From: Candidatus Beckwithbacteria bacterium CG10_big_fil_rev_8_21_14_0_10_34_10
GTDB taxonomy: Bacteria > Patescibacteriota > Microgenomatia > UBA1400
Direction: 5' to 3'
DNA length: 64,000 bases
NCBI GenBank assembly: GCA_002773945.1
Contig: PEZT01000016.1
Location: forward strand, 11,655-75,654
Under the pieces are notes generated by a model. The model saw only the letters and a program-made list of their open reading frames with translations. It was not told the DNA's origin and made no database searches. Below, one piece after another: positions 5,017 to 64,000 of the stretch (position 1 is the stretch's first letter; every line of letters begins with the position of its first letter). A program made the translations under genes and the position numbers.

Positions 5017-5106
5017 CGATATCCTATAAAGACGATCAAGGTTTTCTGCTGAAATTTTAACCCACCCCCTTATTGGATTTGTAATTTTTTACAGTGTTTA
5101 TACATC

Positions 5107-8721: not shown

Positions 8722-8726
8722 TTAAT

Positions 8727-9470: not shown

Positions 9471-9473
9471 TGA

Positions 9474-31549: not shown

Positions 31550-31553
31550 TTTT

Positions 31554-32147: not shown

Positions 32148-32152
32148 AATTT

Positions 32153-32380
32153 TTACAGATAATTCCTTCTTACTAAAACTCCATTCTCAAACCATAAAAT
32201 TCTTAGCGGCTGGCTTTCAACTGGTGTTCTTTCTAACTCACCACCAGGGCTATTTCTTTCTTCTGAATAACGAGGTTTTCCTTGTAATTCTCTTAAGTCT
32301 CTTAAATTTTCTACAATTAATCTTACATTATCCATCCCTGGGCTTAAACCGACTTGGTTAACTTGAGGTTCTACTGGCAT
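32153..32380 (-). CDS. small hypothetical protein (75 aa, Arg/Glu-rich)
   Basis: Fills the 210-nt gap between the acetyltransferase and the upstream GT4; GGAG RBS (AAAGGAGCTTAAATATG); overlaps the GT4 stop by 22 nt; no family recognised. Confidence 0.3.
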   Translation of the reverse strand: MPVEPQVNQVGLSPGMDNVRLIVENLRDLRELQGKPRYSEERNSPGGELERTPVESQPLRILWFENGVLVRRNYL

Positions 32381-34630: not shown

Positions 34631-34638
34631 TTATCTAA

Positions 34639-36880: not shown

Positions 36881-36890
36881 TTAGATATTA

Positions 36891-36906
36891 AAAATATTAA
36901 TATTTT
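36891..36906. repeat. 16-bp perfect palindrome in the 38-bp spacer upstream of the GT2 gene at 36880
   Basis: AAAATATTAATATTTT read directly; all A/T. Confidence 0.3.
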
Positions 36907-36918
36907 ATTCCATCTAGA

Positions 36919-37905: not shown

Positions 37906-37958
37906 CTAAAAATCTATCTTTTATTAGTTAATAAACTAAGCTACAATTAGAAAAACTA

Positions 37959-49012: not shown

Positions 49013-49052
49013 TTTAAGCATTACTAACTTATGCTATTATGTTAATAAAATT

Positions 49053-50162
49053 ATGCCAAAAATAAAAACACTTAAAAAAAATAAACACTTTAGGACTGTC
49101 TTTTTTTACAAAAAAAAGAATCCCTTTGCTTTTGAAAAAAATGGACCTTCTGAATTTTTATACGGCCTCAACTACTTGCAAAAAAAGATTCCTGTTTTAT
49201 CACTCTTTAGTAATGAATATCAACTAAAATATTTGCCTTTAAAATTAATAGAAAAGTTTTTAGCTAAAAAAGCTTTAACTGGAATTCATTTTCAAGCTTT
49301 TCTAAATAATAAAAATAAAATTTCAGAAAATGATCTTATTTTTGCTGTTAATGATGGCTTAAGCTTTGGTTTATTATTCTATAAATTAATAAATAAATTA
49401 GACAACCGAATTATTGTCTTAATTCAAGGCATTCATGATCGTTATAAATATTTCAAAAACTCTAAAATCTTGATTAATTTTTACCAAAAGCTTTTAGAAA
49501 AAGCTGATCTTATTCTTACTCTCTCAGAATATGAAAAAAAAATATTAACGAGATTTTTAAAAATAAATCCTCAGAAAATAAAAGTTTTTTATTTCGGAGT
49601 AGATTTAAAATACTGGGATAAAAATAAGGTTAGAGAAAAGAAACTAAAAAAAGAGTTTGTTCTAACCTTGGGCAATGATATGCACCGAGATTATTCTCTT
49701 CTCATAAATCATTACCACTTAAATATACCCTTAAAGTTTATTACTAAAACGTTGACTCCAGATCAATTAAAAAATCTTAAGGGGAAAAATTTTCAATATC
49801 ACTTAAGTGTTTCTAATCAAGAATTGCGCCAGTTATATTATCGAGCAAAATTCATTATTGTTCCCTTAAAAAATACTCTGGCTACTTCTGGTTTAAGTGT
49901 TACTCTCCAAGCAATGGCCATGGAAAAACCAGTCTTATTAGCTGAAGCTCCAGCCTTAAAAGAATTATTTAAGAATTATCATCATGTTCTCTATTATAAG
50001 ATGAATGATTCAAAATCATTTAAGCAAAAGCTGAAAGAATTAAATCAAAATAAACATTTAAGAAATAAGCTCTCAAAAAACGGCAGAGAGTTAATCGAAA
50101 AACAGTTTAATACCAATTATATGGGAAAAAATCTCCGGCAAATAATTAAATCTTTTTATTAA
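49053..50162 (+). CDS. GT-B glycosyltransferase (GT4-like, divergent)
   Basis: C-terminal ...ATSGLSVTLQAMAMEKPVLLAEAPALKELF. Confidence 0.5.
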   Translation: MPKIKTLKKNKHFRTVFFYKKKNPFAFEKNGPSEFLYGLNYLQKKIPVLSLFSNEYQLKYLPLKLIEKFLAKKALTGIHFQAFLNNKNKISENDLIFAVNDGLSFGLLFYKLINKLDNRIIVLIQGIHDRYKYFKNSKILINFYQKLLEKADLILTLSEYEKKILTRFLKINPQKIKVFYFGVDLKYWDKNKVREKKLKKEFVLTLGNDMHRDYSLLINHYHLNIPLKFITKTLTPDQLKNLKGKNFQYHLSVSNQELRQLYYRAKFIIVPLKNTLATSGLSVTLQAMAMEKPVLLAEAPALKELFKNYHHVLYYKMNDSKSFKQKLKELNQNKHLRNKLSKNGRELIEKQFNTNYMGKNLRQIIKSFY

Positions 50163-51285
50163 GCCTTTTATAAATCTGAAGTGTTTGGGCGGCTGTTTTT
50201 TCCCAAGAATAATCTTTACTTTTTTTAAAACCTTTTTTAATAATAGCCATTGTTTCTTTTTCTTCTAAAGATTTGTCCAAGGCTTTAACGATGCTTTTAA
50301 CATCCTTGGGGTTAAAATAAATGGCTCCGTTTTGAATTACTTCTTTAAAGACCGGAATTTTAGAACATAAAACTAAAGTGCTACAGGAAGCGGCTTCAAT
50401 TAAAGGCAAACCAAAACCTTCAATCAAGGAAGGAGAAACAAGGGCATGACAGCAGTTGTAAAACATGACTAAATCTTTATCTTTAACATAACCAAAATTT
50501 AAAACCTTGTTTTTAAGACCAATTCTTTTTATAAATTCTTTTTCCTTCTGGCTAAATTTATTTCCTCCAAGAGTAACTAGTTTAAAATCATCTTTTTTTG
50601 ACCATAAACTAAAGGCCTTTACTAAAGATATAAAGTTTTTATAATGTCCTCTGGGGCCTAAATAAAGCAGAAAAGGTGAATCAAGTTTATATTTTTCAAG
50701 AAATCTATTTTTAACTTCTTTGTTAGTTATTTTCTTAAAAATTTTGTCTTTTCCCGGATAAACTACAAAAATATTTTCCCTATCAATTTTATAAAGTTCT
50801 AAAAGGTCTCTTTTAGTGCTTTTGGAAATGCAAATGACCGCATCAGCTGACTTAATTATCTGCTTTTTTCTTTTTCTAAAAAGATCATTTTTTCTGCCCA
50901 AAAAATATTGGGGAAATAATTCGTGAATCATATCATAGACTGTCACTACCTGCTTAATATCTTTATCAGGATGTTTAGTGTAATAAGTAGAATGAAAAAT
51001 ATCTCCCTTTTCCTTAAGCCAATATTTGTTTAAAATTACTTGATTAACTGGTTTAATTATGGTTTCCGATATTATATTAGGTAAAAGAAAGGGAATTTTT
51101 TTTATTTTAGAAGTTTTAATTTTTTGACTGAGATTGAATTTCTCTTTAATACTAGGGTGCAAAAAAAGCTTAACCCCTACTCTTTTGTCAATCTTATTTA
51201 ATAAAGGAAGGTAACCGTTAAAGTAACGGCCGACTCCACCCCCTTTTTTAAGACTATACATAATCCCATCAATTAAAATTTTCAT
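50146..51285 (-). CDS. glycosyltransferase family 4
   Basis: VSPSLIEGFGLPLIEAASCSTLVLCSKIPVFKEVIQNGAIYFNP. Confidence 0.75.
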   Translation of the reverse strand: MKILIDGIMYSLKKGGGVGRYFNGYLPLLNKIDKRVGVKLFLHPSIKEKFNLSQKIKTSKIKKIPFLLPNIISETIIKPVNQVILNKYWLKEKGDIFHSTYYTKHPDKDIKQVVTVYDMIHELFPQYFLGRKNDLFRKRKKQIIKSADAVICISKSTKRDLLELYKIDRENIFVVYPGKDKIFKKITNKEVKNRFLEKYKLDSPFLLYLGPRGHYKNFISLVKAFSLWSKKDDFKLVTLGGNKFSQKEKEFIKRIGLKNKVLNFGYVKDKDLVMFYNCCHALVSPSLIEGFGLPLIEAASCSTLVLCSKIPVFKEVIQNGAIYFNPKDVKSIVKALDKSLEEKETMAIIKKGFKKSKDYSWEKTAAQTLQIYKRLNKKI

Positions 51286-51812
51286 TAAAATCCTTGTTTC
51301 AATTCTTCTTCATCTTCCCATAAAATCTTAAGTTCATCTGTCATTGGTTTTAATTCTTTAGCCATTTGTTTTAGCTTTAGTCTTAGTTTTTCTTTGTTTT
51401 CATCAGGCATGGCTTCTAATCTATCAGAAAGGCTAGTTACTACTTCTGTAACTTTATTAGGCAGCTGACCCAAGCTTCTAATAATTAAAGGCAAGGTGCT
51501 AAGAAAAACAAGTAAAAAAGCAAAAAGAATAATTAAAAATTTAACAAAAAACAAGGTTAATTCATTAAACAGTTTTTTTCTGACGGTTAAACCAACAGGT
51601 TTTCTCACTGTATCTTCAGCCTTTAGTTTAATAATATTTTTAAAATACTTTTCTTTTTCTCTTTCTAAATCTTTATATGCTCCGTCCAAACTTTTATTCT
51701 CCACCATTAAAGACAATTCTGGCATAAAAAGATAATATTTGTCTTTTGTTTTTTTAAGGATTAAGTTGTAGTCTAAATTCATAAAATAATTGAGATTTTT
51801 CTTTTTGTTCAT
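51285..51812 (-). CDS. hypothetical single-pass membrane protein with a HicB/UPF0150-like N-terminal pattern
   Basis: N-terminus YNLILKKTKDKYYLFMPELSLMVENKSLDGAYKDL, then TM LTLFFVKFLIILFAFLLVFLSTLPLII, then a coiled-coil K/E-rich tail. Confidence 0.35.
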   Translation of the reverse strand: MNKKKNLNYFMNLDYNLILKKTKDKYYLFMPELSLMVENKSLDGAYKDLEREKEKYFKNIIKLKAEDTVRKPVGLTVRKKLFNELTLFFVKFLIILFAFLLVFLSTLPLIIRSLGQLPNKVTEVVTSLSDRLEAMPDENKEKLRLKLKQMAKELKPMTDELKILWEDEEELKQGF

Positions 51813-51822
51813 AGTTTCTCCT

Positions 51823-53709
51823 TTAATTAACTAAAGTTAAAATTGCTACTTTAGAATTATCCAGCTTGTTATATTTTAAATCAAAATTGCTTTTTTTGAT
51901 AATTTCTTCAGCTTGTTCGCTTTTAACCACAATCACAATTTCCCCATAACGATCCACTAATTCTTTTACATTACCTGAAATAATATCACTTATATCTTTA
52001 TCATACTGTTTTAAATGCTCTTCTCTTTCTCCAGGGGCCCCAACCGTCGCTCCACTAAGAGGCGCTGATGAATAAAGAGCCAAAGCATAACCGATTTTTT
52101 CCCACTCTAAGCCACTCCGCAGCTTGGGCGCAATTATTAAGGCTTTCTTGTCTTGAGTTACTCTCTTAATTAACATCTGATCTTTCTTACTAAACAACTG
52201 AGTAATTTCATTACCATAAACGACTTTTTCAGGCGCTTTAAGATAACCTTTAATTTCCCCAATATGAGCTATTGATAAAAAAACCATGAGTAAAATAACT
52301 AAAAACTCCCTCTTTTTTTTGGTTTTCAAAAGGTAAATCTGAAGAAATTTATTAAGATAAACAACTAATCCTAAAGTAATAAAAAGCATTAAGGGAATAG
52401 CGAATCTACCGATTGATCGAACAAAAATAAACTGCCGCCAAAACATCGCTATCAATAAAGTAGGCGTAGGAAGATCATTAAATCTTATTCCCCCCAAATG
52501 AATTATATTCCCCCAGCTTAAAACATAGAGTAAAAAGGCGGCACTGGCAAATATAAAAGGTAAGCTGAAAAAATGATCAAGAAAAAATATTTTTGCAGTC
52601 CATTTCATTCTCAATTTCATTAAAAAAGAACGGGGATTTTTATAAAAGTTAAAAACACCAATTAAAACATAAAATAAAAGTAAGCTTATTGTAACTGTCC
52701 CTAAATAAGCAAAGCCTTCATATTGGCCAGCTTGTAAATGACGCGAAGTTAAAGGAAAACCAGCTTTTGCAAGATAAGCTGTTGGACCCATCCCTATCTC
52801 TTTAAGCAGGTCTGGACTTTCCTCAGGAGGAATAAATAAAGTTAGGACATCGGCAACATGAAAGCCACTCCCAAATCCACCGCCATATCCCCAATTTGTT
52901 CGAAATCTAGTTGTAAAAAGGCTTGTTTCTGGAGGCACTTTTAGATTATCCTGGTTACCAAGAATAGAAAAGACAACACTAGAAAGAAACAACCCTAAAA
53001 CAAAAGCAAATAATCCCCTAATTAGTCTTTTTTGATTAACTTTCTTTTTGTTAATAGTAAATTCCAAAATATTAAAGCCCAATAAAACCAGGAAAATAAA
53101 AGAAATTCCAAAAGAAAGATAATAGGCTATTAAAGAAGATAGGGGAAAAACCAGGGCCAAAATTACCGCCAGCCTCCAACTTGGTTTTTTGTAAAAACAA
53201 ATATACAAATAACTAAAAATTAAATATAAAGGAAAGTAATAAACTTGCATCGAGATACCATAATAAAAAGAGCTTCTGAAAAGTAGAGCCGGTGATAAAC
53301 TGACTAAAACTGCACCCAGTAATTTTATTGGCCACCATCTTACTTTAAACTTATCCAGTAAAAGACAAGTAAAATAAGCCGTTAAAAAAACAGCCATTAT
53401 TTCTACTAAAGGAAAATAATAGAATTTCCCCAGTAAAGGGAAGATTTTAGATAAAAATTTCAAAATTAGACTAAAAAGAGGAAAAGCCCTTGTAATATTA
53501 GCTGTTTGAAAAGGAAATGATAAACTTTTAATACTACCCAAAGGAAAACTAAAGTTCTCCTTAGCAAAAATTAAATATCTTCCCCAGATGCTCATCACGT
53601 CTGAGTTTGTAATAACGGGCATCTTACCGGAAAATGGCAAGCAATTCTGCCATCTTAAAGAAAAAACAGCCGTGACTAACAGGGCTAGAATAATATTCTG
53701 CTTTTTCAT
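51823..53709 (-). CDS. large polytopic membrane protein with a C-terminal soluble domain (unknown function; YfhO/GT-C-like architecture)
   Basis: 628 aa, more than 12 TM segments, glycine-rich loop NWGYGGGFGSGFHVAD. Confidence 0.35.
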   Translation of the reverse strand: MKKQNIILALLVTAVFSLRWQNCLPFSGKMPVITNSDVMSIWGRYLIFAKENFSFPLGSIKSLSFPFQTANITRAFPLFSLILKFLSKIFPLLGKFYYFPLVEIMAVFLTAYFTCLLLDKFKVRWWPIKLLGAVLVSLSPALLFRSSFYYGISMQVYYFPLYLIFSYLYICFYKKPSWRLAVILALVFPLSSLIAYYLSFGISFIFLVLLGFNILEFTINKKKVNQKRLIRGLFAFVLGLFLSSVVFSILGNQDNLKVPPETSLFTTRFRTNWGYGGGFGSGFHVADVLTLFIPPEESPDLLKEIGMGPTAYLAKAGFPLTSRHLQAGQYEGFAYLGTVTISLLLFYVLIGVFNFYKNPRSFLMKLRMKWTAKIFFLDHFFSLPFIFASAAFLLYVLSWGNIIHLGGIRFNDLPTPTLLIAMFWRQFIFVRSIGRFAIPLMLFITLGLVVYLNKFLQIYLLKTKKKREFLVILLMVFLSIAHIGEIKGYLKAPEKVVYGNEITQLFSKKDQMLIKRVTQDKKALIIAPKLRSGLEWEKIGYALALYSSAPLSGATVGAPGEREEHLKQYDKDISDIISGNVKELVDRYGEIVIVVKSEQAEEIIKKSNFDLKYNKLDNSKVAILTLVN

Positions 53710-54557
53710 TATATTTTTTTTGCTATAACGTAAATAATATCATGAAGATTTAAATAAAAATTGCCTTTTATAAGTTTTGAATTTTTAATATAATTGTACC
53801 AATGTTTTTTATTGCTTCTTATGGATAAAATAATATAAATCATGTGATGAAGACTGCGATAGTAACCACATGAACGACAGTAAATTACCCTGAAGCCATT
53901 TTTATTCAATAGCTTGGTGATTGTTTTTTTAGAAAAATAGTGGAGATGAGTCGGCGGATGAATCAAACGCCACTTCTTCCCCCTTATTCTGGCCACTAAA
54001 CTACCAATATCGCCAGTAGTTATAGCCAATAAGGCCCCCTTATTCATACTTTTCCTTACTTTTCTAAGATATAAGTCCGGCCTTTTTAAGTGCTCTATTG
54101 TATCCCAAAAACAAACAACATCAAATCTCTTTTTACTAAAATTTCGGGGAACGAAATTGCTTCTGATTGCCTTGAAGCCTAGTTTTTGTTTAACATATTT
54201 TACTGCCGGTGACGAAATATCAATCCCCAATATTTCATTAAAATTATCTTTAACTAAATCAAGAAAAAGACCATAAGCACAGCCGATTTTCAAAAGCCGT
54301 TGGTGTTTTTTAAAATCAAGGAATTTTCTTAAAGCTTGCCAGCGTAATTTAAAATTTTTCTGCCAAACTTTTTTGTCTGCTAGATAATTACGAAATTCAT
54401 CACCATAAAAATAGTTTTTCCCATAAAGCTTATTTAGCTTCTTTATACATAAGTTATCAGAATAAAAAATATGGCTACAGTTAGAACATTTTAAAAGCCC
54501 AATATTACGATAAAGAAATTTGCTTTTTTTATTACCACAAACAATACATTTTTTCAT
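53709..54557 (-). CDS. class I SAM-dependent methyltransferase with an N-terminal zinc ribbon
   Basis: CIVCGN...CSNCSH then LLKIGCAYGLFLD...ILGIDIS...VVCFWDTIEHL. Confidence 0.7.
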   Translation of the reverse strand: MKKCIVCGNKKSKFLYRNIGLLKCSNCSHIFYSDNLCIKKLNKLYGKNYFYGDEFRNYLADKKVWQKNFKLRWQALRKFLDFKKHQRLLKIGCAYGLFLDLVKDNFNEILGIDISSPAVKYVKQKLGFKAIRSNFVPRNFSKKRFDVVCFWDTIEHLKRPDLYLRKVRKSMNKGALLAITTGDIGSLVARIRGKKWRLIHPPTHLHYFSKKTITKLLNKNGFRVIYCRSCGYYRSLHHMIYIILSIRSNKKHWYNYIKNSKLIKGNFYLNLHDIIYVIAKKI

Positions 54558-54562
54558 CTACG

Positions 54563-55390
54563 TTACTGTTTTATTATTAAACATTGAGAATCCCAAAGCT
54601 CAATAATAGGCTCTTTTCTTTTCTTAAAAAATTCATCAAAGGCTTTTTTAACTCCCGGCGCATTAATACTATTATAATCATGAGATAAAATAACCCCGCC
54701 TACATTCATTCTTCTATAAAAAAAGTTAAGACAGTCTTTAGTACTTTTGTACAAATCTACATCTAGATGAACAAAAGAAAATTTACGCTTACTAATAGGA
54801 CCAGCAGTCTTAGGAAACATACCTTTATAAAAATATAAATTAGAATATTCTTTAAGATTTGCTTTTACTTCTTTTAAGGAGGTATTTTTCATTTCCCCTT
54901 TTACCAACAAGTCATCTTGGCTACTATCGGGTTTTGGCAACCCAGCAAAAGTATCGAACAGGTGGAAGTTCTTTTTCCCTTTTGCCTCAGATATTATTTT
55001 AGCCGAACCGCCACGATAAACACCTACCTCGGCTAAATCACCCGGTAAATTTTCGGCTTTCTTAGCATAGATATATAGATTTCCCATTTCCCTAAAACTT
55101 AAAAGAGGTTTTATAAATCCAGGGTTATCTTGTGTTATTAAAATTAGGTCTAACAGTTTTTTGTTTTGACAAATAACACTATTGGCTAGTTCTAGTGCTT
55201 TTAAAACTAAAGTTGGATATTTTTTCCACATAAACTTTGGAAAAACCGTATAAAAAAACAAGATAAAAGCTTTATATAACAAGGGGAAGCCTCGCCAATC
55301 ACGTTTAAGCTTAGACTCAAATAAATTAAGCAAGACTTTTAAAAAACCTTGCTTTTGAATATTTTCTCTTACTTTTTCAAAATTAGGCAT
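54563..55390 (-). CDS. TylF/MycF-family (macrocin-type) SAM-dependent O-methyltransferase
   Basis: GDLAEVGVYRGGSA...FDTFAGLP...FVHLDVDLYKSTKDCL...GGVILSHDY. Confidence 0.7.
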   Translation of the reverse strand: MPNFEKVRENIQKQGFLKVLLNLFESKLKRDWRGFPLLYKAFILFFYTVFPKFMWKKYPTLVLKALELANSVICQNKKLLDLILITQDNPGFIKPLLSFREMGNLYIYAKKAENLPGDLAEVGVYRGGSAKIISEAKGKKNFHLFDTFAGLPKPDSSQDDLLVKGEMKNTSLKEVKANLKEYSNLYFYKGMFPKTAGPISKRKFSFVHLDVDLYKSTKDCLNFFYRRMNVGGVILSHDYNSINAPGVKKAFDEFFKKRKEPIIELWDSQCLIIKQ

Positions 55391-55391
55391 A

Positions 55392-56300
55392 CTACAATTT
55401 ATTAATAATTAAGTTCTTTTCTAGTTTTTTAGGTTCTTTAAAATAACTTAACAATCCATGAAAACCCGCTATTGAGTGATTATCAAATCGATTATACACC
55501 AATTTCCAGACACGAGAAACGAAAATAATTAAAAATACTTTTACCCAAAAATTTAAAAAATTATTATATTTTCGACAAAAATAAAGCCTATTTCTAACCA
55601 TAAAGAAGCTGTTTTTTTCATTAATTTTATTAGTTGTTGTAGAAACCTTATGCCAAACATATGCATTTGTTAAGGCCCTTATTTTATATCCTGCCTTGGC
55701 AAAACGAACGCAAAGATCAATGTCCTCCCAATAAAGAAAATAATAAGGATCAAAGGCTCCTAATTTTTTAATTACATCAGTTCGGATTAGCATGGCTGCT
55801 CCAGCCACATAATCAGTATTTAATAATTTTTTTTTGCTATTGGGGGAGGGTTTATTCTGATTCCAAATATTTATCTTGGCCATAGGCCAAGTAAGATTAG
55901 CCCTTAAAAACCAAATTTTTTTTGGTTTATTGTAATAAAAAATTTGAGGACCAAGAATAGCTACCTTCTTATCTTCTTCAGCCACTTTAACTAACCTGGT
56001 TAATACTTGAGAATGGACAACAGTATCATTATTTAGAATAAAAACGTAGTCTACCTTGGCTTCCAAAGCCTGTTTTATTCCCATGTTATTTCCACCAGCA
56101 AAACCAAGGTTTTTTTTGTTTCTGATTACTTTAATTCTAGGAAATTTCTTTCTTATAATATTTGTAGGATCTTTTAAAGAACCATTATCAACCACTATCA
56201 CTTTATGATCATGATAATTTATTTTTTTTAAAGATTCTAAACACTCTAAAGTATCTTTTGTCTGATTCCAGTTTAAAACAATAATAAAAACTTTTGGCAT
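55392..56300 (-). CDS. glycosyltransferase family 2
   Basis: KVFIIVLNWNQTKDTLECL...VIVVDNGS...NLGFAGGNNMGI...LNNDT. Confidence 0.75.
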   Translation of the reverse strand: MPKVFIIVLNWNQTKDTLECLESLKKINYHDHKVIVVDNGSLKDPTNIIRKKFPRIKVIRNKKNLGFAGGNNMGIKQALEAKVDYVFILNNDTVVHSQVLTRLVKVAEEDKKVAILGPQIFYYNKPKKIWFLRANLTWPMAKINIWNQNKPSPNSKKKLLNTDYVAGAAMLIRTDVIKKLGAFDPYYFLYWEDIDLCVRFAKAGYKIRALTNAYVWHKVSTTTNKINEKNSFFMVRNRLYFCRKYNNFLNFWVKVFLIIFVSRVWKLVYNRFDNHSIAGFHGLLSYFKEPKKLEKNLIINKL

Positions 56301-56307
56301 AGAAAAA

Positions 56308-57864
56308 TCAAGAAGGCATTTTATTTAAATGATGAAAATCTTGTTTTTTAATATTCTTAATGTATTCATTAAATTCCGCTTGTATCAAATTTGCCTTTTC
56401 TTTGTAAACTTTTAAAACTCTTTGGTAATAAGTTTTCTCTAATTTTTGTCCTTTCTGGCTTTCTTCCATTGTTATTGCTGGTCCGCTAGAAAAAGGCATC
56501 ATGCAATATTTTTTTAAATAAAGGTAACAGCATTTTGCTCTTAATTGCTGTTTGGTAGAAAGTTTTTTAAGTAATAAATTCTTCAACATCCCAAAATACT
56601 CTTTTTTAGATTTGGGTTCAATAGTAAAACCTAGGTGGTCGTAGAATGTATTACCGGCAATAATGGATGGGATACCTTTCAGGGCAGGCATTTCTACTCC
56701 CGCTGTACCAGTACAAGTTACTATCATATCAGCTACATTTAAAACAGTTGAAGCTTTAATCTTGCTACTCTGAGAAATAAACCTCATGTGAGAAGGTAAA
56801 TTTTTCATTTTTTTATTTAAGTTTAGATCTTTAGTTGGATAATACTTGTTTCCTGGATGCTCTTTAAAAATCCAATTTTTAGATTTATCATTTAGGGCAA
56901 ATTTGTAGGTTTGAATAAACCAATCATAATAATCCTTAAAAAGCATTTCTTTATAATGTGAATGGGGATAATCATTAAAAGCGTGCAGCATCACAAATAT
57001 ATTTTTTTTACTAATATCAAGTTTCATTTTTTTTATAAACGATTCTCTAGTAACCTCACTAAAAACAACATTATCATAACCAGCGGAAAGGGCTCCATAA
57101 TATGAATTGTCGACCTGATTAATAAACTTTTCAAAGTCCTTCTCCACTGATTTACTGTGTTTTTTTGCTAATAAATCCACTATTTTTTTAGAAGGCTTTA
57201 AGGCATAATTATACATTTGTTTTAAGCTATTAAAAACGCTCATGGCAATAATTTCATGACCCCCTCCTTTCCAATAAACCGGAATCTTTTTTTGCATTGC
57301 TACTCGAGAAAGAGGGCCAGATTTTAAACCAATATGATGAGAAACTAATATTGCCTTGACAGGATAATTATTGAAAACAAATCGAGCTTTTTTATCATTT
57401 ATTAAGACTCTGTAAAATATAGTTATTATCCTAAAATCTAAACAGTGCAAAGTAGCAAGGGAAAAAACTGATAAATAACAATCATAAACAAAATCTCCGT
57501 ATGGAATTTTATTAAATTTAAAAGAAAGAAGGTCTTTCTTTATTAAAACATAATAAAAATAGTAAAAAGTAGAAAGTAAAACAAAGTAAAACTTCTCTAA
57601 AAAATTTATTTTAGGAAAACTAATAAATAAGGAATTTGGTGAATAGCTTCGCATTAGCTCTTCATTAGTATAGTTAAATTTTATCCAGGCTATGCGCCAA
57701 TTCTTTGCCTGAGCAACTATCTTTGCGGCCACTGCATTAGAATGATTAATAACAGGGTGGCTTTGTGTTTCTACTAAAAGAAATTTTTTTGACTCAACTT
57801 CTTTAAATTTTAGCCAAAATTTTTTATTGATTTTTATAAATTTATTTTTTCTATTTTTTTTCAT
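56308..57864 (-). CDS. capsule-polysaccharide-biosynthesis-domain protein (KpsC/KpsS/LpsZ-like, possible beta-Kdo-type transferase)
   Basis: 518 aa; ...NWIFKEHPGNKY (conserved HP motif region)...VTCTGTAGVE...; my recollection of the family, not searched. Confidence 0.4.
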   Translation of the reverse strand: MKKNRKNKFIKINKKFWLKFKEVESKKFLLVETQSHPVINHSNAVAAKIVAQAKNWRIAWIKFNYTNEELMRSYSPNSLFISFPKINFLEKFYFVLLSTFYYFYYVLIKKDLLSFKFNKIPYGDFVYDCYLSVFSLATLHCLDFRIITIFYRVLINDKKARFVFNNYPVKAILVSHHIGLKSGPLSRVAMQKKIPVYWKGGGHEIIAMSVFNSLKQMYNYALKPSKKIVDLLAKKHSKSVEKDFEKFINQVDNSYYGALSAGYDNVVFSEVTRESFIKKMKLDISKKNIFVMLHAFNDYPHSHYKEMLFKDYYDWFIQTYKFALNDKSKNWIFKEHPGNKYYPTKDLNLNKKMKNLPSHMRFISQSSKIKASTVLNVADMIVTCTGTAGVEMPALKGIPSIIAGNTFYDHLGFTIEPKSKKEYFGMLKNLLLKKLSTKQQLRAKCCYLYLKKYCMMPFSSGPAITMEESQKGQKLEKTYYQRVLKVYKEKANLIQAEFNEYIKNIKKQDFHHLNKMPS

Positions 57865-57873
57865 AATAAATCA

Positions 57874-58812
57874 TCATTTTCTCGATACTTTAACAATTTG
57901 ATAAAAAGGGACTATTTTCCCTCCATAACTTAATTTATAACCGCCACGTTTAGGACTATTAATACCTAGCATATCCAATTCCTTAAGTCCTAAAGTTTTG
58001 TTTAGATAAACGCAGGCATCATAAAAATTTTTTGTTCCCACTCCCAATTTTTTCAAGCTTGGGTCTGTCCCGGCAAAAAGATGATATGCCCTAAATCGAT
58101 CATAAACAAAAAAACTGGCCATGGCTGGTTTCTTATTAGCTTCTGTGACTAAAAGTTTTCCTGCTTTAGCTCGGAGTAAATTTTTACAAATATTCATAAA
58201 AATTCTTGTTTGTTCTTTTGTTCTTTTAACTCCTTGCCTTTTTAAAGTTGCTTCATTAAAAGAACTTAACAACGCTATATCATTAGACTCTTTAGTCAAA
58301 AAGCGAATATCATTATTTTTATTTAAATCTCGGGTTCTTAACCTAGCATAACCTGAAGTATTCCCGGCTTTTGAAATATCCAAAAGACTGGTATAACGAA
58401 TAGAAATTTTATAATAACCTTTTTCTCTTTGATGATAATTAATCCAGTCAAAGGGACGCATATCAACAATATCCCAATGATTATTAAATTCAACTTTTTG
58501 ATAATGAGAAAATAAATATTTTCCAAAACACTCCAAAGCATTAAAAACAATTAGATTGCGGCGATAATTTCTCAAATTAGATAAATCTTTAAAGATAATA
58601 CCCCTGTAGGCCTGATAAGGCATTAATTTAATTCTTTTTGAAGATTCAGTAAAGGCAAACCCGGCAATAGTTTCTTCTCCCTGGAAACATCTTAAATATT
58701 TTACAGGCTGATTATAACTTTTGAGATAAAAGCTTTTACAAAAAACTGTTCCTTGAGGTGATACATTAACAAAAGTGTCCCAGCTATCTTTATCCCATTT
58801 ATTTATTTTCAT
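57874..58812 (-). CDS. GNAT-fold acyltransferase of the FemAB / Acetyltransf_6 type
   Basis: 312 aa; ...FFVYDRFRAYHLFAGTDPSLKKLGVGTKNFYDAC...; placed next to sugar aminotransferases. Confidence 0.35.
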   Translation of the reverse strand: MKINKWDKDSWDTFVNVSPQGTVFCKSFYLKSYNQPVKYLRCFQGEETIAGFAFTESSKRIKLMPYQAYRGIIFKDLSNLRNYRRNLIVFNALECFGKYLFSHYQKVEFNNHWDIVDMRPFDWINYHQREKGYYKISIRYTSLLDISKAGNTSGYARLRTRDLNKNNDIRFLTKESNDIALLSSFNEATLKRQGVKRTKEQTRIFMNICKNLLRAKAGKLLVTEANKKPAMASFFVYDRFRAYHLFAGTDPSLKKLGVGTKNFYDACVYLNKTLGLKELDMLGINSPKRGGYKLSYGGKIVPFYQIVKVSRK

Positions 58813-59804
58813 TATTTATCTCCATTTATTTCTTTCAACAATTCTTTTCGAGAATTTATTCTTTTTATCTCTTTCTGGGGAAAAGAAAATACTTGTTTAT
58901 TAGTAGGAATATAAGATATCACTTTTTTCCCCACAATAAAAGCAATAAACAATGCCATACTACTAGAACCAATTACAATATCTGCCCATATACAATCCTG
59001 AACAAGTAAATTCCTGGCTGGATTGGAAATAGATACAAGCTTTCTAATCCTTTTATATCTTTCACTCTTCAACATTTCAGAGTATTTATTTATTTTTTCA
59101 GCTGGATGCAGTCTAATTTTAAGTTCTAATAGAATTCCCATCGATCGTGATTTAATAATTTTTAATAAATCTTTAATCACTTCATATTCCGTATAACCAA
59201 AATAGTGAGAATTTCTATACTTTTTTAACGCAGATTGGAAGATTGGCTCGGATATATATAAAATTCTCATCTTTTTATTTTGATGTTGTTTTTTGTTATT
59301 CTGCTCCACTTTTTTAGCTTGTTCGAGGCTCTCTTCAAAATAAGGATTTTTTATCTGAAGTATAATTTTTTTAGGAAATCCATTTTTTAAAGCAATTCTA
59401 TAGGCCCATCTGTCACCCACAAATATATAATCTGGTAAGTTCATTTTCCAATCTCCTGGATAGCCAAATCTTTCTCTATAATTAATCCAATGGTCAAGAA
59501 AACAAGCTGTTTTAATATTATTTTTCTTTGCTGATTTTATAAAATCAATTTCTAAACTAGATCCACCACCTGACCCAGTTAAAACTAAATCAGGTTGAAA
59601 TAATTTTAAAATTTTTTCAATCCTGTGATTTTTTAAATGTAGTGCCTCTGCATATATACTTATTTTTTTCTCTAAAAATATCTTTTTCGCCGGACCTGCT
59701 AAATATAGCAACCATTTAAAATCTCCTTTATTTTTTTTTACCAAAGAAGCAAGAATATTAGCGCCACCAGCATCATGAGAGACAACTAAAATCTTCTTTT
59801 TCAC
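58812..59804 (-). CDS. hypothetical protein (possible Rossmann-like sugar-modifying enzyme)
   Basis: KILVVSHDAGGANILASL...LVLTGSGGGSSLEIDF; 330 aa; no confident family assignment. Confidence 0.3.
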   Translation of the reverse strand: MKKKILVVSHDAGGANILASLVKKNKGDFKWLLYLAGPAKKIFLEKKISIYAEALHLKNHRIEKILKLFQPDLVLTGSGGGSSLEIDFIKSAKKNNIKTACFLDHWINYRERFGYPGDWKMNLPDYIFVGDRWAYRIALKNGFPKKIILQIKNPYFEESLEQAKKVEQNNKKQHQNKKMRILYISEPIFQSALKKYRNSHYFGYTEYEVIKDLLKIIKSRSMGILLELKIRLHPAEKINKYSEMLKSERYKRIRKLVSISNPARNLLVQDCIWADIVIGSSSMALFIAFIVGKKVISYIPTNKQVFSFPQKEIKRINSRKELLKEINGDK

Positions 59805-61105
59805 TTTATTGTTTTCCGTAGCTTATATACTTTTTCAAAAGCTTTTATTACATCGTCAAGATCTTTCTTTTCCATTGAGGCATGGATTAAATCAAGTTGA
59901 AATAGCTGTTTATTGTTCAAGTCTTCCGCTACTGGACAAATCCCTTTTTTATAATTTGGTTTTCCCTTATACCATGGACATTTAAAAGGACAGCCTTTTT
60001 TACCATATGCAATCATTTTTTGATAAATTGGTTGCAAATAAAGAGGCTTACCGCCACGAGCAGCAATCAATATCCCCTCTCTTTCCCGGCCTTTGGTAGG
60101 AGCCAATTCTGCCTTAACAGCATTAATAAATTTATTACGTGAAATACCAACTATATTCTCATCATATTTAAAACATTGAATATAGTAAACATTGGAACAT
60201 CCTCTTCTTAAAGCCGGTGGTATAATTCCAGGTAGTGATTTTAATTTTTCGGCAATATAATTTGCGTTAGACGTTCGTTTCTTTAATAAATTTTTTAATT
60301 TTAGCAATTGGCATCTGGCTATTGCTGCCTCAATTTCTGTCATTCTAAAATTAAAACCAATCATATTAACTAGATTATTAACTCCCATTTTTCCTACCAC
60401 TGCTTCAGCGTGATTACGGATTAATCTTATTCTTTCAGCCAATTTATCATTGCTTGTCACTACCATGCCGCCTTCACCTGTATGAATATGTTTATGATAA
60501 TTCAAGGAAAATACACCAATATCTCCTAAGGTACCCGCATATTCCTCTCTATAAGTAGCCCCAATCGCCTGGGCACAATCTTCTATAATATAAAGGTTGT
60601 GTTTTTTGGCTAAGGCATTTATTTTCTCTCTATCATAAGGCTGCCCATAAATATCAACAACAAGGATTGCCTTAGTATATTTTGTAATTCTTTTTTCTAC
60701 TGATTTTGGATCAAGACAGAAATAATCTTCTTCAATATCAGCAAAAACAGGGATGGCATTAAAAACTAAAATGCTGGTTGCTGAAGCAGACATCGTACAG
60801 GGAGAAACTATAACTTCGTCGCCTGGCCCAATTCCACAAGCCCCTACAGCACAATAAAGCCCTGAAGTGCAGGAATTAACCGAAATTGCATGTTTAACTT
60901 TAAAATATCTTGCCCATTCTTTTTCTACTGCCTTAATTTGCGGCCCACCATAAAAACCAGGATCCCAAGAACCTAAGAATTTTGACAAGATTCCTGATTT
61001 TAAAACTTTTTCTACTGCCTTTATCTCTTTGCTATTAATCACCTTATAGGCCGGGAAAGGCTTGTTCCTTATCTTTGACCCACCGTTAATTGCCAACTTC
61101 TCCAT
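59801..61105 (-). CDS. DegT/DnrJ/EryC1/StrS-family PLP-dependent sugar aminotransferase (long, StsC-like subtype)
   Basis: INGGSKIRNKPFP...GSWDPGFYGGPQIKAVEKEWARYF...AISVNSCTSGL...VFSLNYHKHIHTGEGGMVVT (PLP lysine region); 434 aa. Confidence 0.8.
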   Translation of the reverse strand: MEKLAINGGSKIRNKPFPAYKVINSKEIKAVEKVLKSGILSKFLGSWDPGFYGGPQIKAVEKEWARYFKVKHAISVNSCTSGLYCAVGACGIGPGDEVIVSPCTMSASATSILVFNAIPVFADIEEDYFCLDPKSVEKRITKYTKAILVVDIYGQPYDREKINALAKKHNLYIIEDCAQAIGATYREEYAGTLGDIGVFSLNYHKHIHTGEGGMVVTSNDKLAERIRLIRNHAEAVVGKMGVNNLVNMIGFNFRMTEIEAAIARCQLLKLKNLLKKRTSNANYIAEKLKSLPGIIPPALRRGCSNVYYIQCFKYDENIVGISRNKFINAVKAELAPTKGREREGILIAARGGKPLYLQPIYQKMIAYGKKGCPFKCPWYKGKPNYKKGICPVAEDLNNKQLFQLDLIHASMEKKDLDDVIKAFEKVYKLRKTIK

Positions 61106-61111
61106 ATTTAA

Positions 61112-61858
61112 TTATCCTTCCTCAGTTTTTTTATGCCTAACTTTCTGGTTAATCTTGAGAAATTTTGGATTTTTTAAAAGAAATTCTACTACCTTTTTAG
61201 CTGAAAAAAAAGGATCTTTAGGAAGTAGATTCTTAAAAAGAATATTAATTAATTTATAATCATTTATTTCATCTAAAGTAACCCTCAAGTTAGGCCAATA
61301 CATTTTACCTTTAGCTTTAATGTTTTTTATTTTAAATTCTTCAGGATGTCTATAAATATAATAAGTGCTATGCACCCTTTCAATAGGATCATTAGCAAGC
61401 TTATCAATCTTTTCTAAAACCTCTAAGGAAAGCACTTGTACATCAAAGCCATCCGGATAAGACCTTTCAAGCGCATTAGAAATATAATTATATTTACCTT
61501 CTAAAAATACTTCTATCGCCTCGTCAATATGTCTAAAATCGATTAAGGGGCAATCTCCTGTCAGGACGACCACTATTTTAGCCCTAGAAGCCTTAGCCGC
61601 TTCTAAAATTCTTCTCAAAACATCATTTTCACTGCCTCGATAAAATTTAATTTTATAACTTTTACAAAAATCAACTATTTTATTGTCTTTCTTGTTAATA
61701 GTAGTGGCAACTATAATCTCATTAATATATTTGCTTTTCTTAATTCTATCAATCATTCTTTTTAAGGCAGGCTCACCGGCTAAAGACATAAGAACCTTGC
61801 CAGGCAACCGACTAGAACCCATTCTTGCTTCAATAGTACAAACTATTTTTTTATTCAT
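61112..61858 (-). CDS. acylneuraminate cytidylyltransferase-family protein (SpsF/PseF-like CMP-sugar synthetase)
   Basis: KIVCTIEARMGSSRLPGKVL...VVLTGDCPLID...YPDGFDVQV. Confidence 0.75.
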   Translation of the reverse strand: MNKKIVCTIEARMGSSRLPGKVLMSLAGEPALKRMIDRIKKSKYINEIIVATTINKKDNKIVDFCKSYKIKFYRGSENDVLRRILEAAKASRAKIVVVLTGDCPLIDFRHIDEAIEVFLEGKYNYISNALERSYPDGFDVQVLSLEVLEKIDKLANDPIERVHSTYYIYRHPEEFKIKNIKAKGKMYWPNLRVTLDEINDYKLINILFKNLLPKDPFFSAKKVVEFLLKNPKFLKINQKVRHKKTEEG

Positions 61859-62835
61859 TTAGCTTCTTTTATCAACTTCATACATATTTCTTGAGTTTTT
61901 AAAGCATTTTCTCCACAAGATAATAATTTTTCTTTTTTTTCAACATGACCAATAATATTATCTATTAATTTTAATAGTCCTTCATTAATATTAGTTTGTT
62001 TTATTACTCGCTCGCCTAAATCCTTATAGTCAGAAAAAATAGGATCTTGACGAACAGCTTGCAGACTGTATTGCAACCCAAACTGATAGATATTAATTCT
62101 TATCTTGCTAAATAATAAATCCATTTCCCCAATACTATACTCTTTTGCATTTCCCGCAATAAGATGAACTTTTATATTGTTTTTAAACTTTAGAAAAATA
62201 TCTAAAGTAGGATCAGTTTTTTTATAATCAATAGTTTTTGCAAGAATTTTATATGATATAACCTCCCCAAAAAAATATCTTAACAAATCGATTACATGTG
62301 ATCCATTATTTAAAATTCCCTTAGTGTAAATTACTGATGTGTTGATAAAACTACCATACCTCCCATTATCAATATTATATTTTATTTTTTGAATGGTGCT
62401 ATCAAACCTTCGGTTAAAATTTACTGTTAAAGAAATCTTGTTTTTTTTATATTCCATCAGTACTTTTTTAGCCAGTCGGCTATCATTACTTAGTGGCTTC
62501 TCGCAAATGACTGCTTTTGGTTTATAATCCAAAACTACTTTTAATACTTTGACATGTGTTTCTGTAGGCGTACAAATATAAACAAGGTCAGGTTTTATTT
62601 GAGAAAACATCTCTTTTAATCCAATAAAAGGAACTGTTTTCCACTTACGAGCAAATGTCACTGCTTTTTTATAAAAAAGATCATAAACTCCAACAAGATC
62701 AGTTTTTTTATGAATACTAATAGCATGAGCGTGAGTTAAAACATTCTTATCTTGAAGCGAATCATACCCACCAGCTATATTACCGCAACCTATAATTACT
62801 GCTTTATATTTATGATTATTTTCCGTAACTTTCAT
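61855..62835 (-). CDS. Gfo/Idh/MocA-family NAD(P)-dependent oxidoreductase
   Basis: KAVIIGCGNIAGGY...VYICTPTETHVKVL...AVICEKPLS. Confidence 0.75.
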   Translation of the reverse strand: MKVTENNHKYKAVIIGCGNIAGGYDSLQDKNVLTHAHAISIHKKTDLVGVYDLFYKKAVTFARKWKTVPFIGLKEMFSQIKPDLVYICTPTETHVKVLKVVLDYKPKAVICEKPLSNDSRLAKKVLMEYKKNKISLTVNFNRRFDSTIQKIKYNIDNGRYGSFINTSVIYTKGILNNGSHVIDLLRYFFGEVISYKILAKTIDYKKTDPTLDIFLKFKNNIKVHLIAGNAKEYSIGEMDLLFSKIRINIYQFGLQYSLQAVRQDPIFSDYKDLGERVIKQTNINEGLLKLIDNIIGHVEKKEKLLSCGENALKTQEICMKLIKEAK

Positions 62836-62837
62836 TT

Positions 62838-64000
62838 TTATGCTAATCTTTTAAACCCAGCGTGGCAAACAGAACCTTTTAAATGCTTTTCTGGATTACC
62901 TTCTTTTACAGCTTTAGCTATAAAAGCAAATACTTCATCTAACGCTTCTAAGTATTTTTTAACGTGCTTTTTTTTATGGGCATAGGAAGCATAAAAACTT
63001 GTGCTAGCCAGGAACCCTTTTTCTAGCATTAATTGAGTAAAAATAGTTTTTAGAACCAGTTGTTTTTTGTGTTTGAAAGAAAAATGTCCAATGGCATTAG
63101 TGCCAGAAACATTTATTTTAAGTCCATGTTTTTGAGCTGTTGATTGCCAGCCCTTTTTTATTTGCCCACCAATATTCTGCAAATAACTATAAACATGATA
63201 GCACTTTGATTTTCTGATGGTGGCTAGGCTGGCTACTAATCCAATTCTTTCAGTCCAAGAAGTGCTACTAATAAAAGTATCTTGGGCAATTTGCATTATT
63301 TTTCTCTTGCCAATAATTACCCCCATAGAATAACCATTACTTATGGCTTTGGCAAAAACAGCTATATCAGGCTCCATCTCTAGCTGAAGATGGGCTCCTC
63401 CCTCATTAAGCCTAAAACCCATACTCACTTCATCAATAATCAAAACAATACCAAGCTTTTTAGTTATTTCAACAATGGTGTCAATAAATTCTCTTTCAGG
63501 TTGATTATGTCTTAACGGCTCCATAATCACTGCCCCAATTTTATCTCTGTGTTTTTTGATTAGCCACAAAAATTGCTTAGTTTTATTAAATTTAAAAGGA
63601 TAAGATGTTCTTTTTAAGACTCGAGGAACGCCTAGTGGATTAAGTCCAGGCAGTAAATGACCATCTAAAGCTTTTTTATCAGCCAGATTAGATGATAAAT
63701 ACCAATCATGCCAACCATGATAACCACAAAACAAAATCACATCTTTTTTTGTCCTGGCTCGGGCAATTCTAATTGCTACGGCCACTGCTTCTCCCCCTGT
63801 CCGAGTATAGCGAACCATTTGCGCCCAAGGGTGAATCTTAATCAACAATTTTGCTAATTCCACTTCTTCAGGTGCATTTAAAATACTTATATTTCCTTTA
63901 TCAACTGCATTTTTTACTGCCCGATCAACATCTGAATCGGCATATCCTAAAATACAAGCCCCTACAGACATCTGACCCATATCAATATATTTTTTATCAT
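62838..64000 (-). CDS. class III (GSA-aminomutase-like) PLP aminotransferase; the N-terminus lies beyond the window end
   Basis: ...ILGYADSDVDRAV...FCGYHGWHDWYL...IIDEVSMGFRL...; the frame stays open upstream of the listed Met (…DKKYIDMGQM…) to position 64000. Confidence 0.7.
   Translation of the reverse strand, partial: DKKYIDMGQMSVGACILGYADSDVDRAVKNAVDKGNISILNAPEEVELAKLLIKIHPWAQMVRYTRTGGEAVAVAIRIARARTKKDVILFCGYHGWHDWYLSSNLADKKALDGHLLPGLNPLGVPRVLKRTSYPFKFNKTKQFLWLIKKHRDKIGAVIMEPLRHNQPEREFIDTIVEITKKLGIVLIIDEVSMGFRLNEGGAHLQLEMEPDIAVFAKAISNGYSMGVIIGKRKIMQIAQDTFISSTSWTERIGLVASLATIRKSKCYHVYSYLQNIGGQIKKGWQSTAQKHGLKINVSGTNAIGHFSFKHKKQLVLKTIFTQLMLEKGFLASTSFYASYAHKKKHVKKYLEALDEVFAFIAKAVKEGNPEKHLKGSVCHAGFKRLA

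Follow-up and report, generated by a model that had tools for sequence, protein, structure and literature searches.

A CMP-sugar module in a Candidatus Beckwithbacteria genome is the distal part of a pseudaminic acid-type gene cluster and carries a recurrent tailoring cassette

How is a sugar activated with cytidine monophosphate (CMP) made by a set of neighboring genes that encodes activating and modifying enzymes, yet no enzyme that would build the sugar itself? This question is raised by positions 56308 to 64000 of a 64,000-nucleotide stretch of DNA (hereafter the window) from Candidatus Beckwithbacteria bacterium CG10_big_fil_rev_8_21_14_0_10_34_10 (contig PEZT01000016.1), which belongs to the candidate phyla radiation (CPR). 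An earlier reading of the DNA, made without database searches (the sequence-only reading), had recognized here a cytidylyltransferase in the company of two aminotransferases, an oxidoreductase, an acyltransferase, a "Rossmann-like" protein, and a KpsC/S-like protein. It left two possibilities, namely that the pathway continues past the window or that the module makes an undescribed CMP-activated amino sugar independently of any synthase. That neither a synthase nor a dehydratase is encoded in the window is correct, as tblastn searches with NeuB, PseI, PseB, and PseG return no homologue anywhere in the 64 kb.

The pathway beyond the window edge

The pathway does continue past the window. The exact protein sequence of the window's Gfo/Idh/MocA oxidoreductase (MocA) is encoded on five public contigs. 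Source records list the proteins of this region as hypothetical. One of the contigs, L001 (JGI sample 3300004210), is 100% identical to window positions 64000 to 57078 over 6923 bp and runs 8835 bp further upstream than the window. This extension carries the following genes, in order (coordinates on L001; bit scores are against the cut-offs of the respective NCBIfam models):

Start of L001, where the gene is cut: PseB-like dehydratase, 336-amino-acid (aa) product, Pfam Polysacc_synt_2/Epimerase
303-1448: PseC (TIGR03588 equivalog), 493 bits, cut-off 423.5
1460-2464: PseG UDP-sugar hydrolase (TIGR03590), 159.3 bits, cut-off 153.55
2474-3553: ATP-grasp protein
3565-4566: NeuB-family synthase, Pfam NeuB
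Between the synthase and the PIG-L gene: hexapeptide acetyltransferase
5092-5775: PIG-L deacetylase
5807-6316: PseH-like GNAT, best match PseH (TIGR03585), 52.9 bits, cut-off 93.1
6313-7038: WbqC
7040-8680: aldo-keto reductase (AKR) gene, then an SpsF-type cytidylyltransferase (CT1, 257 aa)
8688-9998: class-III aminotransferase, complete, 436 aa

Because a NeuB-family synthase and a PseB-like dehydratase lie just past position 64000, their absence from the window is an artefact of its edge. The CMP-sugar module is the distal part of a pseudaminic acid (Pse)-type cluster split by that edge, an explained and ordinary arrangement. A Pse pathway completed by the adjacent genes is also the very finding that the sequence-only reading had set against its own proposal of a novel sugar. 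The ATP-grasp, PIG-L, and WbqC genes are interspersed among the core Pse genes, and their combination suggests that an N-acetyl group on the sugar is removed and replaced; PIG-L is present in 8 of 80 genome loci collected around the 330-aa protein introduced below.

Within the window, every open reading frame (ORF) from 64000 down to 50146 is encoded on the minus strand and is therefore transcribed inward, away from the window end. The glycan genes are spaced by -4 to +10 bp, some of them overlapping, which is consistent with one operon and with the co-transcription suggested earlier. A scan of 49000-64000 for promoters and terminators gave counts close to shuffle expectation with sites inside genes, and is uninformative in DNA this rich in A and T. 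The genes at issue are:

62838..64000, minus strand, cut by the edge: class-III (GSA-aminomutase-like) aminotransferase, Pfam Aminotran_3, 2.8e-31
61855..62835, minus strand: MocA, PF01408, 1.9e-16
61112..61858, minus strand: SpsF-type cytidylyltransferase CT2 (CTP_transf_3), PF02348, 104 bits
59801..61105, minus strand: DegT/DnrJ/EryC1-type aminotransferase DegT2, 434 aa, PF01041, 5.8e-87
58812..59804, minus strand: 330-aa protein with a GT-B fold (unnamed family), by AlphaFold2 (AF2) model and Foldseek
57874..58812, minus strand: FemAB-like/Acetyltransf_6 acyltransferase, PF13480, 1.5e-8
56308..57864, minus strand: 518-aa GT-B protein, a distant KpsC/KpsS relative by its relatives' PF05159 matches and by Foldseek

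The Pfam matches bear out the families originally given to the class-III aminotransferase, MocA, the cytidylyltransferase, DegT2, and the Acetyltransf_6 protein, and the cytidylyltransferase contains the motifs ARMGSSRLPGK and YPDGFD. The orientation had been reversed: the acyltransferase and transferase genes, placed upstream of the cytidylyltransferase in the sequence-only reading, are minus-strand genes and therefore lie downstream of it. The operon contains two SpsF-type cytidylyltransferases, each with its own oxidoreductase and aminotransferase. The class-III aminotransferase belongs with the AKR and CT1 (module A), apart from module B, which comprises CT2, MocA, DegT2, the 330-aa protein, the acyltransferase, and the 518-aa protein.

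A cassette linked to pseudaminic acid genes

The family of the 330-aa protein is large (3491 representative clusters at 50% identity, E<=0.001). A genome scan seeded on it found 240 genomes, from which 80 loci were kept and their genes labelled by BLAST; these loci contain MocA (72), DegT2 (74), NeuB (62), PseB (53), PseC (48), CT2 (43), and PseG (35), as well as the class-III aminotransferase (17), the AKR (11), the FemAB-like protein (7), and the 518-aa protein (3). A metagenome scan was seeded on the closer sequences of the MocA family (438 relatives, 80 loci kept), with 52 loci forming the denominator for DegT2, 34 for the 330-aa gene, and 27 for NeuB/PseI. DegT2 lies within 3.5 kb of MocA in 45/52, the 330-aa gene within 6 kb in 32/34, and NeuB/PseI accompanies them in 23/27. 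From these reciprocal counts, MocA, DegT2, and the 330-aa protein form a near-obligate triad beside NulO (nonulosonic acid) synthase genes. NeuB/PseI is likewise present in 37 of the 46 genome loci that have at least 7 kb on each side.

The two cytidylyltransferase types, SpsF and PseF, are nearly mutually exclusive in these loci. Among the same 46 genome loci, 22 have only the SpsF type, 17 only PseF (one of them with a fusion of CT1 and aminotransferase), and 3 have both; among 27 metagenome loci the corresponding figures are 10, 14, and 1. From this pattern we conclude that CT2 is the probable functional counterpart of PseF. Of 36 CT2-like genes, 34 adjoin MocA or the 330-aa gene. CT2 itself reaches 104 bits on PF02348 against a cut-off of 22.6 and has the N-terminal ARxGSxRLPxK loop, and its homologues are named SpsF in the source annotation (JGI). 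On the PseF model TIGR03584 it scores 33.6 bits and CT1 25.6, where the cut-off is 205.7, so neither is a PseF equivalog; CT2 also falls below the cut-offs of the KdsB models, and its best PDB match is 6OEW (3.3e-43), with KdsB reaching only 7e-8. The SpsF type assigned earlier is right, and CT2 is neither a PseF or KdsB equivalog nor MobA-like. The start of CT2 overlaps the stop of MocA by 4 bp. Given the near-mutual exclusivity with PseF, CT2 probably serves this cluster as its CMP-nonulosonate synthetase.

The triad comes immediately after Pse genes in Methylophilaceae (L054), Sulfurospirillum (L075), and Azospira oryzae (L016). PseF and PseH exceed the NCBIfam cut-offs in all three, as do PseG in Azospira and PseI in Methylophilaceae, and PseB and PseC are called there by BLAST similarity only. 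The Methylophilaceae locus repeats the window order of MocA, DegT2, 330-aa, FemAB-like, and 518-aa-like genes. In many loci the cassette lies between PseI and PseA-like/HisH/HisF genes, a set 3' of the cassette that we read, by its composition, as an acetamidino-forming system; in Campylobacterales loci a Maf flagellin glycosyltransferase also follows the cassette. Near the CT2 homologues of Leptospira yasudae and of a proteobacterial metagenome-assembled genome (MAG), modules A and B are both arranged around a single NeuB, with module B consisting of CT2, MocA, a protein of ~330 aa, a DegT protein of 434-437 aa, a variable N-acyltransferase, and a protein of 518-583 aa. The cassette is spread across Patescibacteria, Campylobacterales, several other Proteobacteria lineages, Chlorobia, Spirochaetes, and Bacillota. 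Module B, we conclude, supplements the CMP-pseudaminic acid pathway.

MocA carries the motifs EKP at residue 112 and GSHVID at 178; its second-best NCBIfam match is an archaeal UDP-GlcNAc 3-dehydrogenase (1.9e-17), and among its closest relatives in the PDB is 3EZY, which served as template in solving ElaA (PMC13656337). DegT2 has SLNYHK in its active-site region (residues 200-205) and lies below the cut-off on all NCBIfam equivalogs. The PDB entries closest to it are KdnA (5K8B, 1.6e-46) and aminotransferases for sugars and inososes, with PseC and WbpE more distant. The nearness to KdnA, a Kdo8N transaminase, is consistent with amination at C8 as proposed below, although it does not discriminate between models.

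Lineages differ in the N-acyltransferase that stands beside DegT2 or the 330-aa gene, which may be of GNAT, formyltransferase, or FemAB-like type: a 184-aa Acetyltransf_3 GNAT is present in 29 of the 46 genome loci, with a formyltransferase in some loci and a FemAB-like protein in others. A variable acyltransferase family among fixed neighbors is as expected for an enzyme decorating a newly made amine. The window protein matches PF13480 only (35.4 bits, cut-off 22), and searches against PDB sequences gave nothing meaningful. Its orthologue in Methylophilaceae (L054 10891-11847) also matches FemAB PF02388 (32.8 bits, cut-off 24).

The remaining two proteins of module B have no Pfam match in the window, and neither they nor their family profiles meaningfully match any PDB sequence. 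The 330-aa protein, described as Rossmann-like with some remote support, is modelled by AF2 as a GT-B fold (predicted local distance difference test, pLDDT, 92.8), in agreement with Foldseek. Its motifs are HDAGGA, DHWxNYRERF, and HPAE; the protein has no clear D/E-D/E-G motif, and a tblastn search against plasmids returned no match. Four of 42 relatives match the polysialyltransferase family PF07388, and the protein itself weakly matches the BFO_1060 NulO-transferase model (30.4 bits, cut-off 200) in the C-terminal part only; in the Tannerella NulO transferases, which have been validated genetically, this part binds CMP and holds the HP motif (PMC5420450). In one 906-aa relative (P0367), the 330-aa domain is fused to ~600 further residues that match no Pfam model and are not significantly similar to either the 518-aa family or a neighbor family of 587 aa; the C-terminus of this protein resembles the C-terminal half of a GT-B enzyme, at a similarity that is not significant.

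The 518-aa protein is likewise modelled as a GT-B fold (pLDDT 92.4). Foldseek matches it to the N-domain of KpsC (6MGC, TMt 0.49), to TagF, and to a polysialyltransferase bound to CDP (5WCN). PF05159 is matched by 11 of 43 relatives (best 7.3e-7), and an HP pair at residues 336-337 (H336-P337) is invariant; a 583-aa Leptospira neighbor is a homologue (hhalign 96%). The KpsC/S-like label thus finds only remote support, in the relatives, the HP pair, and the fold. The best description for both proteins is that of GT-B enzymes using CMP- or CDP-linked donors, and the 518-aa protein is probably a CMP-sugar-dependent transferase.

Proposed chemistry and competing explanations

By analogy with characterized enzymes, we propose that the operon makes, modifies, and transfers a Pse-type NulO and that module B oxidizes, transaminates, and N-acylates CMP-Pse, with C8 as the likeliest position; we put the probability of this reading at about 0.6. 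It is well established that MocA, DegT, and N-acyltransferase enzymes can, in three successive steps, replace a sugar hydroxyl by an N-acylamino group, as in WbpB/E/D and WlbA/C/B.

Whereas the gene families, their genomic linkage, and the core pathway past the window are demonstrated, we infer the substrate, position, acyl group, and acceptor of module B as follows. In a minus-strand operon of more than 20 genes, whose distal part is the present interval, the core PseB-like, PseC, PseG, NeuB-family, and PseH-like enzymes encoded 3.4-8.8 kb beyond 64000 would build the NulO. CT2 would then make the CMP-NulO, a step that canonical PseF performs in other lineages. MocA would oxidize a free side-chain hydroxyl of (CMP-)pseudaminic acid, likely at C8, to a ketone, which DegT2 would transaminate; the FemAB-like enzyme would acylate the new amine, possibly with an aminoacyl group. 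The route would accordingly run from CMP-Pse through 8-keto and 8-amino intermediates to an 8-N-acyl product, a NulO of 5,7,8-triamino type, and the 330-aa and 518-aa GT-B proteins would use the CMP-sugar as donor.

The choice of substrate and position follows from which hydroxyls are available. Amination of C3 on a UDP-hexose precursor was considered and rejected on chemical grounds, since this carbon ends up as C6 of the NulO, and the oxygen on C6 is the one that closes the pyranose ring. As C3 carries the only free secondary hydroxyl on the UDP-hexose precursors, the finished NulO is the likelier substrate. There, the hydroxyls at C4 and C8 are both free; a 4-keto group would, by chemical reasoning, promote loss of CMP, and this, along with the precedent of the MocA-family protein ElaA, proposed to oxidize C8 of CMP-Leg5Ac7Ac (PMC13656337), favors C8. 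An 8-amino NulO, 5-acetamido-7-(3-hydroxybutyramido)-8-amino-3,5,7,8,9-pentadeoxy-nonulosonic acid, has been described in the O-antigen of Flexibacter (Tenacibaculum) maritimus (PMC3210612), and we found no genes assigned to 8-amino NulOs in the literature searched. A paper on the T. maritimum O-antigen gene cluster mentions an oxidoreductase/aminotransferase/acetyltransferase locus, in too little detail to be tied to the cassette.

Several observations weigh against the proposed amination of CMP-Pse. The NeuB-family synthase scores 245 bits on the PseI model TIGR03586 (cut-off 340) and 299 on NeuB_NnaB (cut-off 399.65), and the PseH-like GNAT also remains below the PseH cut-off. C8, though likelier than C4, is favored solely by analogy and chemical argument. 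Foldseek ranks UDP-sugar 2-epimerases first for the 330-aa model, among them WecB and NeuC (TM ~0.66) and a WbpI-type enzyme, and the combination of MocA, DegT, N-acyltransferase, and GT-B proteins is also that of the WbpB/E/D/I set for UDP-2,3-diacetamido sugars. Moreover, the 330-aa protein is retained across lineages with very different acceptors, including flagellin islands with their own Maf transferase. Its conservation, equal to that of MocA and DegT2 despite these differences, is more in keeping with a pathway enzyme than with a terminal transferase and leaves room for a role as hydrolase, eliminase, or epimerase instead of terminal transfer.

The explanation that survives best among the alternatives, while still unlikely, builds on this resemblance. 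In a Wbp/Wlb-like route, MocA would oxidize C3 of UDP-GlcNAc(A), DegT2 would transaminate it, N-acylation would follow, and the 330-aa protein would act as the 2-epimerase, giving a separate 2,3-diamino sugar in the same glycan. Besides the matching enzyme families, the second-best NCBIfam match of MocA and the top Foldseek matches of the 330-aa model (UDP-GlcNAc and UDP-2,3-diNAc-GlcA 2-epimerases) agree with it. Yet none of 42 members of the 330-aa family matches Epimerase_2 (Pfam), even at E<=1, whereas four of them match the polysialyltransferase family and there is a weak match to the NulO-transferase model. Within the cassette lies a CMP-forming cytidylyltransferase whose translation is coupled to that of MocA, NeuB/PseI is present in most genome and metagenome loci, the cassette in many loci lies between PseI and PseA-like/HisH/HisF genes, and DegT2 is nearer KdnA and inosose aminotransferases than WbpE. 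In comparison with the pathway to UDP-2,3-diacetamido-2,3-dideoxy-mannuronic acid (WbpB/WbpE/WbpD/WbpI), the cassette shares a MocA oxidase, a DegT protein, an N-acyltransferase, and a GT-B fold protein, but differs in its tie to CMP-forming enzymes and a NulO synthase, in a GT-B protein without the Epimerase_2 signature, and in an acyltransferase of GNAT, Fem, or formyl type rather than a left-handed beta-helix.

Epimerization is a slightly poorer candidate, and in our view improbable. Here, MocA would oxidize C8 and the AKR would reduce it from the other face, as in the Ela and Epa systems, to give 8-epi-Pse, with the aminotransferases acting elsewhere, e.g., in precursor or acyl-group synthesis. 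Both enzymes are encoded in this operon, MocA is of the ElaA family type (PMC13656337), and the AKR beside an SpsF-type cytidylyltransferase mirrors the EpaA fusion (PMC12053666, PMC7371886). Across loci, however, MocA travels with DegT2 and not with the AKR (74 vs. 11 of the 80 loci seeded on the 330-aa protein), no MocA with an SDR (short-chain dehydrogenase/reductase) or AKR but without DegT2 was seen among the 80 MocA-seeded loci, and a variable N-acyltransferase usually stands beside DegT2. A crude motif screen for SDR-like ORFs, the only one applied, flagged no SDR partner of MocA in these 80 loci. Finally, a synthase-independent route to an undescribed CMP-activated amino sugar or acid, the second possibility of the sequence-only reading, had in its favor the lack of NeuB, KdsA, or dehydratase genes within the 64 kb and a CT2 that matches no characterized equivalog, but is refuted by the extended contig to the point of having almost no probability left: a short way past the window, the same operon encodes PseC, PseG, a PseB-like dehydratase, and the NeuB-family synthase, ~160 other loci show the same association with NulO genes, and the sugar is, by this adjacency and the recurrent attachment to Pse pathways, a modified NulO.

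Amination and N-acylation of CMP-Pse thus remains our preferred reading. A broader version of it is more tentative, and we rate it below even odds: the cassette could be the as yet unassigned pathway to 8-amino-8-deoxy (5,7,8-triamino) NulOs, acting on CMP-Pse in the hundreds of species that have it, which range from Campylobacterales with their flagellin islands to CPR bacteria, and in this genome, where it is joined by module A and a Fem-like, possibly aminoacyl-tRNA-dependent acyltransferase, the product might be an aminoacylated tri- or tetra-amino NulO. As far as the searchable literature shows, the cassette is uncharacterized, and we found no described triamino-NulO pathway there. NulOs shape flagellar assembly, capsule and O-antigen identity, and recognition by phages and the immune system, and their tailoring enzymes are mostly unknown. 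A tightly linked and phylogenetically broad tailoring cassette attached to complete Pse pathways is now delimited. If the proposal is true, the cassette would introduce a new acylated amino group, giving in the acetyl form a residue of ~357 Da (Pse with NHAc replacing OH), and several carriers are cultured, among them Azospira oryzae DSM 21223, Rhizobium sp. Root708, Massilia phosphatilytica 12-OD1, Chlorobium ferrooxidans DSM 13031, Leptospira yasudae, and Sulfurospirillum.

The wider locus, module A, and known systems

The operon continues past the 518-aa gene without a break in strand or spacing:

55392..56300, minus strand: GT2 glycosyltransferase, next operon gene after a 7-bp gap, PF00535, 6.3e-25
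54563..55390, minus strand: TylF-type O-methyltransferase, PF05711, 4.9e-24
53709..54557, minus strand: class-I S-adenosylmethionine-dependent methyltransferase, PF13489, 3.6e-24
50146..53709, minus strand: distal operon genes for a 628-aa protein, a 175-aa protein, and a GT4 glycosyltransferase (PF00534, 5.1e-30), spaced by -1 to +10 bp

TylF-like genes are found near the cassette in 10 of the 80 loci seeded on the 330-aa protein. The distal 628-aa and 175-aa proteins have no Pfam match. The former (51823-53709, minus strand) and a 561-aa protein (47327-49012, plus strand), also without a Pfam match, have the look of multi-pass membrane proteins, judged by eye from the sequence, and are candidates for a polymerase, a ligase, or a GT-C-like enzyme inside the glycan locus. 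The surface-glycan locus extends far beyond the cassette and includes window positions 27596-42889, where four PMT_2/DUF2142 GT-C-type membrane glycosyltransferases (27596-29035, 34639-36054, 37959-39206, and 41315-42889), a Wzy_C ligase/polymerase-like protein (29032-30663), and a Wzx-type flippase (40023-41315) are encoded. Elsewhere in the window, a single 765-aa ORF (6424-8721, minus strand) contains the three Mur ligase domains together with a MurB FAD-binding domain and a MurB_C domain, and looks like a MurC-type ligase fused to MurB.

Module A, consisting of an AKR, an SpsF-type cytidylyltransferase, and a class-III aminotransferase, is set apart here as a second recurrent module, one already visible and unexplained in Aeromonas and Legionella loci. 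Its aminotransferase gene is cut by the window, as shown by a frame that stays open to position 64000 and by an alignment to GSA-aminomutase models that begins only around residue 55-65; the protein scores 201 bits on PRK06209 (NCBIfam), below the cut-off of 486. CT1 is 43% identical to CT2. Of 18 CT1-like genes, 11 are fused to a class-III aminotransferase and 3 more are adjacent to one (14/18 in all), the fusions including a 675-aa protein in Leptospira yasudae (L004 3409-5436) and a 687-codon open frame in Rhizobium sp. Root708 (L068 4459-6519; 681 aa from the first start codon). In a gammaproteobacterial MAG, CT1 and the class-III aminotransferase are immediately preceded by a second MocA-like gene (L021 6025-6984), and the locus has no detected homologue of the AKR. 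With a MocA-like gene in the place of the AKR, module A looks like an oxidoreductase, a cytidylyltransferase, and an aminotransferase, parallel to module B, which suggests that it needs some oxidoreductase and not an AKR specifically. In a second, 99.99% identical assembly of the operon (L002 2406-3270; Logan SRR6473347), the AKR appears as two overlapping ORFs of 192 and 107 aa, either through a frameshift or through an assembly error.

With low confidence, module A could catalyze an exchange of amino and hydroxyl groups on a CMP-linked sugar. The flagellin glycan of A. hydrophila AH-1, possibly a member of the Aeromonas subgroup considered next, has a mass of 403 Da and an unresolved structure, and its fragment ions are one mass unit off those of a Pse5Ac7Ac-type sugar (PMC4691044); an exchange of OH for NH2 would give a one-mass-unit shift of this kind. 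The AKR/"pseF"/class-III aminotransferase set is present, with no function assigned, in the group I flagellin glycosylation islands of 39 Aeromonas strains (PMC7874193) and in the L. pneumophila Sg6/12 lipopolysaccharide locus (PMC3694923). These loci resemble the present one in their order of PseB, PseC, AKR, cytidylyltransferase, class-III aminotransferase, PseG, and synthase, but, as described, they are without module B.

A bifunctional gene joining an SpsF-like cytidylyltransferase and an AKR has been reported in a Vibrio cluster (PMC7371886), and in EpaA/EpaB a CTP_transf_3-AKR fusion acts with an SDR to convert Pse to 8-epi-Pse (PMC12053666). The AKR gene directly upstream of CT1, among Pse genes, is a split version of this pairing. 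Its third partner here, in contrast to the SDR dehydrogenase of EpaA/EpaB, is a class-III aminotransferase, often fused to CT1. In phages, a tblastn search for an EpaA-like CT1 fusion found one unannotated marine virus, at 27% identity only.

By description, module B resembles ElaABC of Acinetobacter baumannii KL49, which is proposed to epimerize C8 of CMP-Leg5Ac7Ac (PMC13656337), in being a discrete cassette in which a cytidylyltransferase and a MocA protein follow the NulO synthase; among the PDB matches of the cluster proteins, ElaA, ElaB, and ElaC are not recognizable. The Ela system differs in its SDR reductase (ElaC) and PseF-like ElaB, where the present cluster has DegT, N-acyltransferase, and GT-B proteins and the SpsF-type CT2, and in a legionaminic acid (Leg)-type base sugar that is epimerized, where a Pse type is predicted to be aminated. 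With the known GT-B transferases of NulO, Kdo, and sialic acid (Tanf_01245/BFO_1060, PF07388, and PF05159), the two GT-B proteins have the fold in common and an HP motif within their C-terminal domain, and there are weak profile matches of the 330-aa family to BFO_1060/PF07388 and of the 518-aa family to PF05159, but neither window protein reaches any family threshold.

A close parallel for the cluster as a whole is the canonical Pse pathway of Campylobacter and Helicobacter (PseB, PseC, PseH, PseG, PseI, and PseF), with which it shares a PseB-like protein, PseC and PseG equivalogs, a NeuB-family synthase, and a GNAT, and of which related cassette loci carry the full canonical set. The Beckwithbacteria cluster departs from it in having, in place of a PseF-type enzyme, two SpsF-type cytidylyltransferases, and in carrying about ten extra tailoring genes.

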